The position numbers are program-made. From a virus (lineage: Duplodnaviria > Heunggongvirae > Uroviricota > Caudoviricetes): 18,561 bases of DNA. Positions 15,001 to 18,000 of this stretch are shown one piece after another. Within the stretch, counting starts at the first letter, position 1. Every line of letters begins with the position of its first letter. The DNA lies in IMG/VR virus record IMGVR_UViG_2671180846_000018, one strand, 5' to 3'.

Positions 15001-18000
15001 AGTTGATTATTGAAAATCAAAAGTCATTTAAACAATAATGATACCCAGCAAGAGATTTCTTATTTTAACTCATAGATCAGACAGTCAACGATTTCTAAAC
15101 CATTTACCATAGAATTAGAAACGCGAACTTTACCATCGTTGACTCTAGCAAATCCTTTTAACATTTTATAAACAAAAGCTGAATCCCCCTTAGCCTCAAT
15201 TGCTTCTAATGGTATCGGCTTATACTTTTTTGATATGCTATTTCTATTTATCTCACTGATTTTTCTATATATTTCTGCCGGCCCACGTTCTGAGAAGTCA
15301 CTGATAACTAAAATATATCTCCAAGATAGATCTGGGTAATAAAACCACATTGCAGCATCAATAGTTAAATTCTGTAACTTGAGTTTTTTTAACAAAAATT
15401 GACCTGAGAATTCCATATCTTTTGTCAACTCTCTGCCGATTACCAGTGTGCTTTTACCCATTTCAAAACTCCAGAATTTTGGTCACCTACAGCATCAAAC
15501 AATTGTTCGGCCATAGCTTTACTTATGTTATTGTCGTATCTAAATTGCTCGCTCCAGTCTTTAACGACCGACCAGTTAATCTCCAACGAAACATCATTTT
15601 TTGCGTCAGCAATCAAAATTTGATGTAAGTTGGCAATTTTGAGAAGTTGCGACAAATCATGAGTATATGAATCATTTACGACTTTTTTGTTTGGAAACTC
15701 ATGTTGTAAAAATGACTTGGCAATACAGGCCTTCAATGCACATTCAACTGCATACCCACAAAGATAATATGCACCATGAAAAAAGCCATGATCAAGCAAG
15801 CATTTGGCCTCATTAAGCCTAGTGTCAGATAATGCTTCAAGGTCGTTTTTATTCATACAATTATAACTTGAATTATCCTAATTTTTATGATTATACCCTT
15901 ATCAGGTATGATGTAGGAACTGAAAACAATATTGGATATCATTTTCGGTATTTCTCTGCAAATTCCAGCCCACAGGATCTCGGTGTACAATCTGTCGCTG
16001 ATCGCGCAAATTTAGGGTCAATCACTTCATTTTTTGCATCAAACCCTCACTAACATCGAACGATTATAGTACAAGTAGTGTTCTTGACTTCTCATTAAAC
16101 CGTCAGCATTCAATTAATTACAAAATACTAGCGGCATTTCTCTCCCGCAACTTTATTACAGCCGTTCAGAACGTAAATGCGTCAATACTCGACTCCACTT
16201 ATCATCCTGCCACGGCCGGAATTTTACATGTGCCGTTTCTCTGGCAAGGATTGCCTGTGCCTTATTGAGTATCCGGGGATATTCTTGTTCGATTGAAGTG
16301 AAGCGACCGGCTTCGCGGTGTTCTGCTACCTGAAGAAGCGGAGTGACGTTTTGGCAAGCGGTTAACATTGTGTCACTTGCCCGCCATAACCAAGCAAGTG
16401 TGCAAAGTTCGTTATCAGTGAATTGTTTTGTGATTGGGGATTGTTGAATTTCTCGATCGAGAATATCCAGCACCCAGCGGCGGAATTCTTTGGCCACAGG
16501 AGTGCGGGCGAACATGGCGATCAGATGGGCGCCACGGAGGGAGAAAATGCGAGTCTTCTTACGATAATTTCCTGAGGTCGTTGATTCGACGACCTGAGAC
16601 ATTCCGTCAGTAAACTCATCAATATTTTTGTTGTAGATGTCGGTTACTGCTTTGGTGCTGGCATATTTTAATGCTGCCGCCAATTCTTTGCTGGTAAACC
16701 AGATCTGGTTGTTGTGATTTATAGGAGTGAATTTTACATCGCGGAATGCGAGCTGAGTGACCATAGCGATAATCTCGTTTTGAATTTGAGCTATCACCAC
16801 CGACGACGCCAATCGACTGGTGGTGGACTGTGCAAGGTTGGCGTAACCGGTCAAAACGAAATCCGGCGCTTCCGAAGAAGCCCTCACACAGCCCACCATA
16901 ATTTTTGTGTAGACGTGCACTGCGCATAAAAAAACCGCGAACGCGGTTATGCGTCGTTTTGATGTCCGGGACGCCAATCCCGTGTGCCGATTTTGCGGCA
17001 ACGCACAGAATATAGCGCCGGATAAATAATGTCGTCAACCCTTGCATATGGGGGGCGCGATGATCACTACTACCACCATAATCGCTCCAACTGTTGCAAC
17101 TACTTTAGGCTAAGACATCACGATTTCCATATCACCTTTAGCCGCCAGACAAACAGAGACTCCCTGTTCTTGGCTGCCAAAAACACCGAATGCAAAAAAT
17201 CGCAGGTGTATTTCTGCATCTGTGGAGGGAGAAGAGAGTTTGGATTGTATGTGCGCATAAACGTCCCCGTTTAGCGCAGAAGTCACCGTAGTTGTTCATA
17301 TTCTGATGACATGATAATTTCCTATTGAATAGAAAAAATTAACACGACTCATTCTTATGACTGGAAAAAGCAATCATGCTAATAATCATTGTTGTTCCAG
17401 TTCCAAATGCAGCGAAATAATCACCAATATTTTTTCTACCGGTTTCGACTTTGATGCTATATTCTGCTAACACCTAACTAACACTACGTTTCACACAGCA
17501 ATTACATGGAAATAACATGACTATCAAAGCGACTGACATAGAGATTCTTCATCGTTATGCTGAAGGGGTAATGGAACGTTCTAACCATCATGCAAAAAAT
17601 GTTGGTGCAGCCGCTCTTACATTGCTAGGAGGTGTTATCTGGAAAGCCCTGCCCGGATCAATCGAGATAAGAACGTATAACGGAAGTCTTGCAAATATGG
17701 TGTGGTGGCAAAGCGAAAGAACATTAAAAAATTATGCAATCTCATACAACCATAATTCATGTGAAATTGAAATGAGAGATGAATCAGTCAAAGGTGCTGT
17801 ATTATTTAGCATTTCCAACGAAACCACTCCAGAAAAAATATTATCACAGCTTTCTGAGCTTTAATTAAAGGCGGTGCTAACACCGCCCATACCATTACTC
17901 CACATCTTACGCAACTTGATAATTATGCTCTATTAAATACCCACAATATTTCATCAATGCATGGGTCAGCTACAAAATGTTTACCGTGGTAATTCCTGTT

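Follow-up and report, generated by a model that had tools for sequence, protein, structure and literature searches.

The 18,561-nucleotide (nt) stretch of DNA analysed here, IMG/VR virus record IMGVR_UViG_2671180846_000018 (hereafter the window), carries the gene ant, and the question raised by this locus is how the short terminated leader in front of ant would control its expression. The region was interpreted as an immI-type antirepressor control cassette of a lambdoid Escherichia coli prophage, in which the antisense RNA C4 would block translation of ant and a small RNA of the IsrK type would titrate C4. The probability of this reading was estimated at about 0.8. The promoter, IsrK, C4, and ant all lie on the minus strand of the window, with the following features.

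17038..17009, minus strand: sigma-70 promoter (-35 TTGACG at 17038..17033, 18-nt spacer, -10 TATATT at 17014..17009)
17000..16928, minus strand: IsrK-like small RNA with a pair of 5' hairpins, then b1 in a single-stranded stretch, then a Rho-independent terminator
16977..16971, minus strand: site a1, UUGGCGU, in the loop of IsrK hairpin 2, 7 bp with a'
16962..16954, minus strand: site b1, UCAAAACGA, in IsrK, nine Watson-Crick pairs with the b' loop
16948..16928, minus strand: IsrK terminator (stem AACCGC/GCGGTT, loop GTTC, stem-loop 16948..16933, T7 to 16928)
16903..16816, minus strand: C4 antisense RNA (RF01695), a long outer stem around two hairpins
16899..16765, minus strand: in-frame stretch upstream of ant, 45 sense codons without a stop, with AUG 16899 at the 5' end of C4
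16863..16851, minus strand: segment b', GAUUUCGUUUUGA, the loop of C4 hairpin 2
16844..16838, minus strand: segment a', ACGCCAA, single-stranded in C4 and unpaired in the Rfam model
16812..16806, minus strand: site a2, UUGGCGU, beginning 4 nt past C4, 7 bp with a'
16783..16771, minus strand: site b2, UCAAAACGAGAUU, 13 pairs (2 G-U) with b', at -19..-7 of the ant AUG
16764..16156, minus strand: ant, 202-aa antirepressor-type protein, ATG at 16764

The 18.5-kb window was scanned with Rfam at the curated thresholds, and only two matches were obtained, isrK and C4, both in the ant leader. The C4 match scored 82.5 bits against a gathering score of 45 and covered model positions 1-87 of 87, and the isrK match (RF01394) covered the full-length model with 64.1 bits against a gathering score of 50. 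In addition to the score, the isrK candidate possessed its own promoter and a Rho-independent terminator, the latter being the 3' hairpin of the Rfam isrK model. It was located directly 5' of a C4-like RNA and an antirepressor gene, here as well as in 16/16 related loci, including Gifsy-1. The C4 RNA (88 nt) takes up most of the 160 nt between the IsrK terminator and the ant start codon, and its minimum free energy (MFE) was -42.4 kcal/mol (z = -5.4 against mononucleotide shuffles). Like other members of its family, it exposes two segments complementary to target pairs lying up- and downstream of it, with b2 at the ribosome-binding site.

The promoter TTGACG-18-TATATT described in the earlier note was confirmed, as was the GC hairpin with a T7 tract that it had placed 55-75 nt further on. 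A consensus promoter scan alone returned 6 promoter-like sites in comparison with 7.8 expected, which is not above chance. Sequence comparison indicated that the -35/-10 register ahead of isrK was kept in related loci. Furthermore, the layout matched that of PisrK (TTGACA-18-TATATT) in the isrK-orf45(STnc1160)-anrP-isrJ locus of Gifsy-1 in Salmonella (Hershko-Shalev et al. 2016, PMC4825925), and deletion of PisrK abolishes anrP transcription (PMC4825925). By analogy, transcription in the window would start near 17002, and the terminator would then lie at +55 to +75. Visual inspection of the sequence near the module promoter showed nothing resembling a LexA box. Just upstream of the promoter, RefSeq records a truncated pseudogene remnant (17181..17258, minus strand), and a terminator-like hairpin with a T-run is found at 17218..17201 (minus strand), which could insulate the module from upstream early transcription.

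The two exposed segments of C4 each have one target in IsrK and another between C4 and ant. Site b2 lies 22 nt past a2, overlies the ant Shine-Dalgarno GAG (16776..16774), and is followed 6 nt later by the start of ant. With shuffled targets, the p values were 0.0002 for b2, 0.017 for b1, 0.009 for a1, and 0.009 for a2, and the four matches occurred together in 0/5000 shuffles. The RNA family matches, the complementarities with their spacing, the position over the ribosome-binding site, and the covariation across loci were established at the level of the sequence. A further 10-nt perfect complement was noticed between the promoter spacer at 17023..17014 (ATCCGGCGCT) and the junction of the two C4 hairpins at 16870..16861 (AGCGCCGGAT). 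It was set aside as probably due to chance, because the spacer DNA is untranscribed and the match is missing from L004, the single relative compared by eye.

A blastn search with the 281-nt leader retrieved 249 phage records, most of them of Shiga toxin (Stx)-converting phages at ~73% identity. Sixteen diverse related loci were fetched and compared together with the window, giving 17 loci. The isrK RNA was followed by C4 ~25 nt later in 16/16 related loci, and the reverse complement of the 7-nt a' segment occurred exactly in isrK and again just past C4 in 17/17 loci, with a' itself falling into five types (ACGCCAA, GTGCTAA, GTTCCAA, AGACCAA, and GTAGCAA). Thirteen distinct b' loops were found in the 17 loci, each matching its own b1 and b2, and the loop of the window was unique among them. 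The cognate duplexes had mean energies of -10.7 (b1) and -11.0 (b2) kcal/mol compared with -4.1 and -5.9 kcal/mol for the non-cognate ones, and almost no non-cognate target bound as well as the cognate one. Relative to the downstream start codon, b2 was located at -22..-4 or over the codon itself in every locus. This co-variation of a' with a1 and a2, and of b' with b1 and b2, is as expected of a trans-pairing RNA with two target copies and is not expected of a simple terminator-attenuator.

The nearest relatives, IdasGreatGrand and PhiR26_1, had leaders 88-90% identical and Ant proteins 77% identical to those of the window. Both kept the promoter and the a sites and carried a different b'/b1/b2 set, with b2 shifted onto codons 2-4. 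Phages P1 and P7 are known for their heteroimmunity, and by analogy the change of the b set looks like a change of RNA specificity. The genes behind the leaders were always of the antirepressor type, with a varied domain make-up: Bro-N with P22AR_C, ORF6N with P22AR_C (phi24B and Stx2 II), ORF6N alone (AnrP), Bro-N alone, Rha, or a 63-aa open reading frame (ORF) followed by ORF6N with Rha.

As predicted from the sequence in the earlier note, the ORF from 16764 encodes a 202-aa Bro-N product (PF02498, aa 15-101, about 16722..16462, E = 1e-13, 52.2 bits against a gathering score of 25.6). The C-terminal ~100 aa, regarded there as unassignable, were assigned by the domain search to P22_AR_C (PF10548, aa 111-181, about 16434..16222, E = 7.8e-17, 61.6 bits against a gathering score of 22.4). 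Moreover, Ant matched 'anti-repressor Ant' in PHROGs (phrog_245 and phrog_5060, E = 1e-55), and no PDB relative by sequence, no NCBIfam match, and no PADLOC model match were obtained for it. Judging from the family names and from work on P22 Ant and phi24B, Ant would inactivate a CI-type repressor. The part of ant encoding P22AR_C has a counterpart in several lambda-like phages (matches H5-H12, such as LR595861.1 41763..41900), where a 143-nt stretch in an unannotated region is 81% identical to window 16305..16447. This stretch may be an antirepressor gene remnant.

The reading frame of ant is open upstream as far as 17001, so a 281-aa ORF (TTG 17001) and a 247-aa ORF (AUG 16899) were considered as the real gene and rejected. 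The start was set at 16764 because the closest relatives break the upstream frame, the N-terminus is conserved, and the start in RefSeq is the same (WP_001415151.1, an identical 202-aa product). The AUG at C4 position 5 was conserved in 17/17 loci, and the upstream ORF (uORF) beginning there ran in the relatives for 8, 15, 31-36, 45, or 110 codons or into the gene (8 to 260). In IdasGreatGrand and PhiR26_1 (L002 and L003), it stopped 20 nt before the start codon and out of frame, and the N-terminus M[VT]TQLAF was kept. The orf45-like frame fused to ant in the window is probably incidental and not a real extension of the protein.

Compared with characterized antirepressor loci, the module is by its sequence of the P1/P7 immI and Gifsy-1 isrK-anrP kind, and not of the P22 sar/mnt/arc kind. 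The immI operon of P1 and P7 has the composition c4-icd-ant1/2 (Citron & Schuster 1990, as cited in PMC8198154). In the annotated P1 record used for the comparison (NC_005856), the order is promoters P2c4/P1c4, a1, b1, C4, a2, b2, icd, and ant1/2. In the window, promoter, a1, b1, a hairpin with a U-run, C4, a2, b2, and a start codon follow one another in the same order, and in both elements a2 lies 4 nt past C4 and the a2-b2 gap is 22 nt. The C4 RNAs belong to the same Rfam family (68.8 bits for P1 and 82.5 bits for the window), an antirepressor is the regulated product, and co-varying short sites set the specificity. The P1 leader scored 68.8 bits with C4, 51.0 bits with c4-a1b1, and 35.1 bits with isrK, the last being below threshold. 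This suggests that IsrK is the form which the P1 a1b1 leader takes in lambdoid phages.

The differences from P1 lay in the details of this plan. The a1b1 leader of the window is a full IsrK with a strong terminator, whereas that of P1 reached only 35 bits with the isrK model. An icd gene, which in P1/P7 stands between b2 and ant and has ant translationally coupled to it, was not found in the window with Pfam and NCBIfam, while Icd of P1 matches NF033153; without icd, b2 therefore falls directly on the ant ribosome-binding site. In addition, the window promoter has no annotated C1-type operator, whereas in P1/P7 immI the primary repressor controls the promoter through an operator (Oc4/Op51), the window element is an integrated lambdoid prophage and P1 a plasmid prophage, the window Ant consists of Bro-N and P22AR_C, and the a and b site sequences are entirely different.

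The Gifsy-1 locus likewise shares features with the window. Its promoter is TTGAC-18-TATATT, isrK and C4 stand in the same order with the same spacing, the a-type is likewise ACGCCAA/UUGGCGU, the antirepressor starts about 51-54 nt past C4, and b2 overlies the ribosome-binding site. The C4 match falls on the stable species STnc1160, and the AUG from which orf45 is read is the conserved one at C4 position 5. In Gifsy-1, transcription from PisrK proceeds into anrP, with part of the transcripts passing the IsrK terminator (PMC4825925). The read-through mRNA is translationally silent and is activated 100-fold or more by IsrK in trans (PMC4825925), and both Hfq binding by IsrK and the trans-activation were shown (PMC4825925). 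Bases G28/G31 of IsrK pair with C162/C159, as confirmed by compensatory mutation (PMC4825925). Counted on the sequence, G28/G31 map to a1 (UUGGCGU) and C162/C159 to a' (ACGCCAA), so that the a1:a' pairing has experimental support in a homologue of the same a-type. On the other hand, the b' loop differs, AnrP has an ORF6N domain only, orf45 ends with an ATGA overlap at anrP, to which it is translationally coupled, whereas the window frame is fused to ant without a stop, and the Q-like gene antQ lies immediately upstream whereas the Q gene of the window (12965..13363) lies ~2.8 kb downstream. The Gifsy-1 order is isrK, C4, anrP, and isrJ, and no Rfam match to isrJ was obtained after ant in the window.

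The ant loci of Stx phages (phi24B, 933W-like, and Sp5-like) shared the isrK and C4 leader at ~73% identity and the P22AR C-terminal domain of Ant. They differed in having an N-terminal ORF6N domain instead of Bro-N, other b' types, and a module placed after ninE, whereas the window module lies between replication gene P and the HEPN cassette upstream of ninB. From knockout and complementation assays with a pR' reporter, it was proposed that the Ant of phi24B helps the prophage to be induced efficiently (Fogg et al. 2011, PMC3064807). The likeness to P22-like antirepressor loci suggested in the earlier note was borne out as far as RNA control of an antirepressor is concerned, since P22 immI also has an antirepressor with a P22AR C-terminal domain whose synthesis is limited by a small RNA. 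It did not extend to the P22 type itself. The sar RNA of P22 is encoded on the opposite strand, within the arc-ant junction, whereas the window RNAs lie on the ant strand; no sar match was obtained with Rfam in the window at the gathering score or at E<=1, isrK and C4 being found instead. The neighbouring ORFs gave no Arc or Mnt family match in a general Pfam scan, which did not cover every small ORF and included no dedicated search. By its description, the CI RNA of P4 is also a processed same-strand RNA that pairs with repeated sites (seqA/seqC) up- and downstream of itself, and IsrK was regarded as a structural homologue of P4 seqA by the Gifsy-1 authors (PMC4825925). However, the outcome in P4 is different: CI makes transcription of replication genes terminate prematurely and does not control an antirepressor.

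On this basis, a working model of the module can be proposed by analogy. A transcript would start near 17002 from the single, constitutive-looking sigma-70 promoter, and most transcripts would end at the IsrK terminator, giving a ~75-nt IsrK-like RNA with a1 and b1. The terminator must leak, because transcription of C4 and ant needs read-through; read-through was demonstrated in Gifsy-1, and the same leakiness is presumed for the window terminator. The read-through transcripts would extend into C4 and the ant mRNA. In P1 and P7, mature C4 is freed from its precursor by RNase P, and full ant repression in P1 requires C4. In the window, C4 may act excised, as it is by RNase P in P1, or within the transcript. 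The a' segment would pair with a2 and the b' loop with b2; because b2 lies over the ant Shine-Dalgarno, Ant would remain untranslated when b' is bound, and the untranslated ant mRNA may then be prone to Rho termination as in P1. The short IsrK holds a second copy of both target sites, which suggests that it serves as a decoy. Abundant IsrK would sequester a' and b' and allow ant translation, and Ant (Bro-N with P22AR_C) would then inactivate the CI-type repressor and promote prophage induction.

The neighbouring genes were also considered, and the other features of the region are as follows.

15060..15856, minus strand: HEPN pair, two overlapping genes directly after ant, encoding 138 aa and 133 aa
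17517..17864, plus strand: VCH_CASS14 protein, 115 aa, integron-cassette family PF18315 (E = 6e-20)
17977..18438: ORF of 153 aa, no matches
11694..12776, plus strand: OmpC-like porin gene, full-length (Porin_1, E = 3e-153)

The gene order was cI (S24 peptidase), cro, O, P, the divergent cassette gene, the isrK-C4-ant module, the HEPN pair, ninB/ybcN, ninE, rusA, Q, the porin gene, and the lysis genes. The S24-type repressor of the prophage is WP_000858975.1. The VCH_CASS14 gene is the divergent one, upstream of the isrK promoter and between replication gene P and the ant module. The porin gene lies on the opposite strand between the Q antiterminator gene and the lysis genes, and it encodes a lysogenic-conversion porin such as lambdoid prophages are known to carry. 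The 138-aa protein of the HEPN pair matched HEPN (PF05168) and is a weak PADLOC candidate (PDC-M28A), and its 133-aa partner had no Pfam, NCBIfam, or PADLOC match; the two proteins matched phrog_5737 and phrog_5760, both PHROGs of unknown function. A tblastn search with both proteins found no HEPN pair in the 16 related loci, which extend ~0.7 to 1.5 kb past the downstream gene. The two genes therefore seem to be a cassette of their own and may form a toxin-antitoxin or defence pair.

Several observations weigh against control by C4 and an IsrK decoy. The c4-a1b1 model (RF03163) scored 40.6 bits over isrK (E = 2e-8), below its gathering score of 46.7, although the match was full-length at 17015..16963 and the a1 and b1 sites themselves were present; the threshold was passed by six relatives and by P1. 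The ant Shine-Dalgarno (GAG) is weak. The a and b contacts were not recovered by MFE folding of the whole leader or by cofolding of C4 with IsrK or the untranslated region, because such loop-loop, pseudoknot-like contacts fall outside the models of those programs; RNAduplex on the whole RNAs gave uninformative large energies. Furthermore, the Gifsy-1 authors explain activation by orf45 translation and not by the release of the anrP ribosome-binding site from pairing with C4 (PMC4825925), and in that system over-expression of the orf45/STnc1160 region did not weaken IsrK toxicity (PMC4825925). If the same held for the window, IsrK sequences would pair with the C4 region and hide initiation at AUG 16899, and IsrK in trans would open this AUG, so that ribosomes run through C4 into ant and produce a 247-aa long form. 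The mechanism was demonstrated for isrK-orf45-anrP (PMC4825925), the AUG at C4 position 5 was present in all 17 loci, and in the window it precedes the ant AUG by exactly 45 codons, in the same frame and without a stop. Nevertheless, such activation was judged unlikely to be the main control: it hinges on a uORF that terminates at the start codon, and this was not conserved (L002 and L003 stop out of frame), AUG 16899 has no preceding Shine-Dalgarno, and it would not account for the fact that in all loci b2 follows b' and sits on the downstream gene's ribosome-binding site. It is compatible with repression by C4, and both may coexist. A still more doubtful combination would join two linked readings, in which the 247-aa Ant is made besides the 202-aa form through IsrK-triggered initiation at AUG 16899, and the RNAs cross-talk with co-resident Stx prophages. 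A pair of Ant forms would be reminiscent of Ant1 and Ant2, which P1 makes in frame with each other. As for the RNAs, the a-type ACGCCAA of this non-Stx prophage recurs in Stx phages and in Gifsy-1, and its b-type is its own, so that weak IsrK/C4 cross-talk might take place; such cross-talk would couple or insulate the induction of Stx prophages in enterohaemorrhagic E. coli (EHEC) O26/O103.

Two simpler explanations fared less well. The short terminated transcript envisaged in the earlier note corresponds to the IsrK RNA (RF01394), and its alternative, a purely cis-acting attenuator in which the hairpin and T7 tract limit transcription into ant with no trans-acting RNA, would suit a canonical intrinsic terminator between promoter and ant. 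It is nevertheless very improbable, for it ignores an 88-nt C4 RNA far above the Rfam threshold, leaves the three-way covariation of the recognition sites unexplained, and does not agree with the action of Gifsy-1 IsrK in trans (PMC4825925). The proposed tie between the Bro-N protein and an exclusion system, with the protein as a component or sensor acting with the HEPN operon 300 bp downstream, was scarcely credible. The two are close and on the same strand, and the HEPN protein is a weak candidate in PADLOC (E = 1.8e-7). However, the HEPN pair accompanied 0/16 related loci, including the two with a 77%-identical Ant, Ant itself had no PADLOC match and strongly matched the antirepressor PHROGs, and the 300-bp spacer holds its own promoter-like AT-rich region.

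Some features of the related loci were recorded alongside. In Yersinia phage vB_YpM_39 (L008), a ryfA match (RF00126, 163..461, 134.6 bits) lies ~1 kb upstream of isrK-C4, and behind C4 come a 63-aa ORF and, after it, the gene of a 380-aa ORF6N and Rha protein, the arrangement that most resembles icd-ant of P1; no Icd-like match was found for the small ORFs after C4 in L008 (63 aa) and L010. Two Stx2a phages (L004 2285..2368 and L005 2253..2336) carried sRNA-Xcc1 (RF02221) above threshold beside the isrK-C4 module, downstream of a truncated antirepressor gene. No RefSeq annotation over the leader was present among the matches listed, and gene callers sometimes lay spurious ORFs over the isrK/C4 RNAs. 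GenBank coding sequences cross isrK and C4 in L013 (1127..2269), L014 (1121..2269), L012 (1413..1958), and L002 (1508..1757). Salmonella phage 118970_sal3 and phage cdtI have a 380-aa 'antirepressor/transcriptional regulator' ORF that is open ~600 nt upstream of the likely start, and in IdasGreatGrand small 'hypothetical proteins' are annotated over the isrK/C4 RNAs. The coding sequences annotated through isrK/C4 are probably mis-annotations; the open frame in L013 and L014 is longer than expected by chance.

A lambdoid prophage with 100% identity to the window was found in 172 complete E. coli genomes, O26 and O103 EHEC among them. Sequence resembling isrK-C4 was present in 2045/5426 complete E. 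coli genomes (38%); a single genome had as many as 6 copies, and 92 of the copies were on plasmids. The cassette is of a well-known type and of little discovery value: Rfam already has curated families for the two RNAs, and work on P1/P7 and Gifsy-1 has established the mechanism. With 13 b-site sets in 17 loci, the RNA immunity specificities form a large repertoire. These specificities control antirepressors in EHEC prophages, including Stx phages, and antirepressor activity affects induction and hence toxin production.

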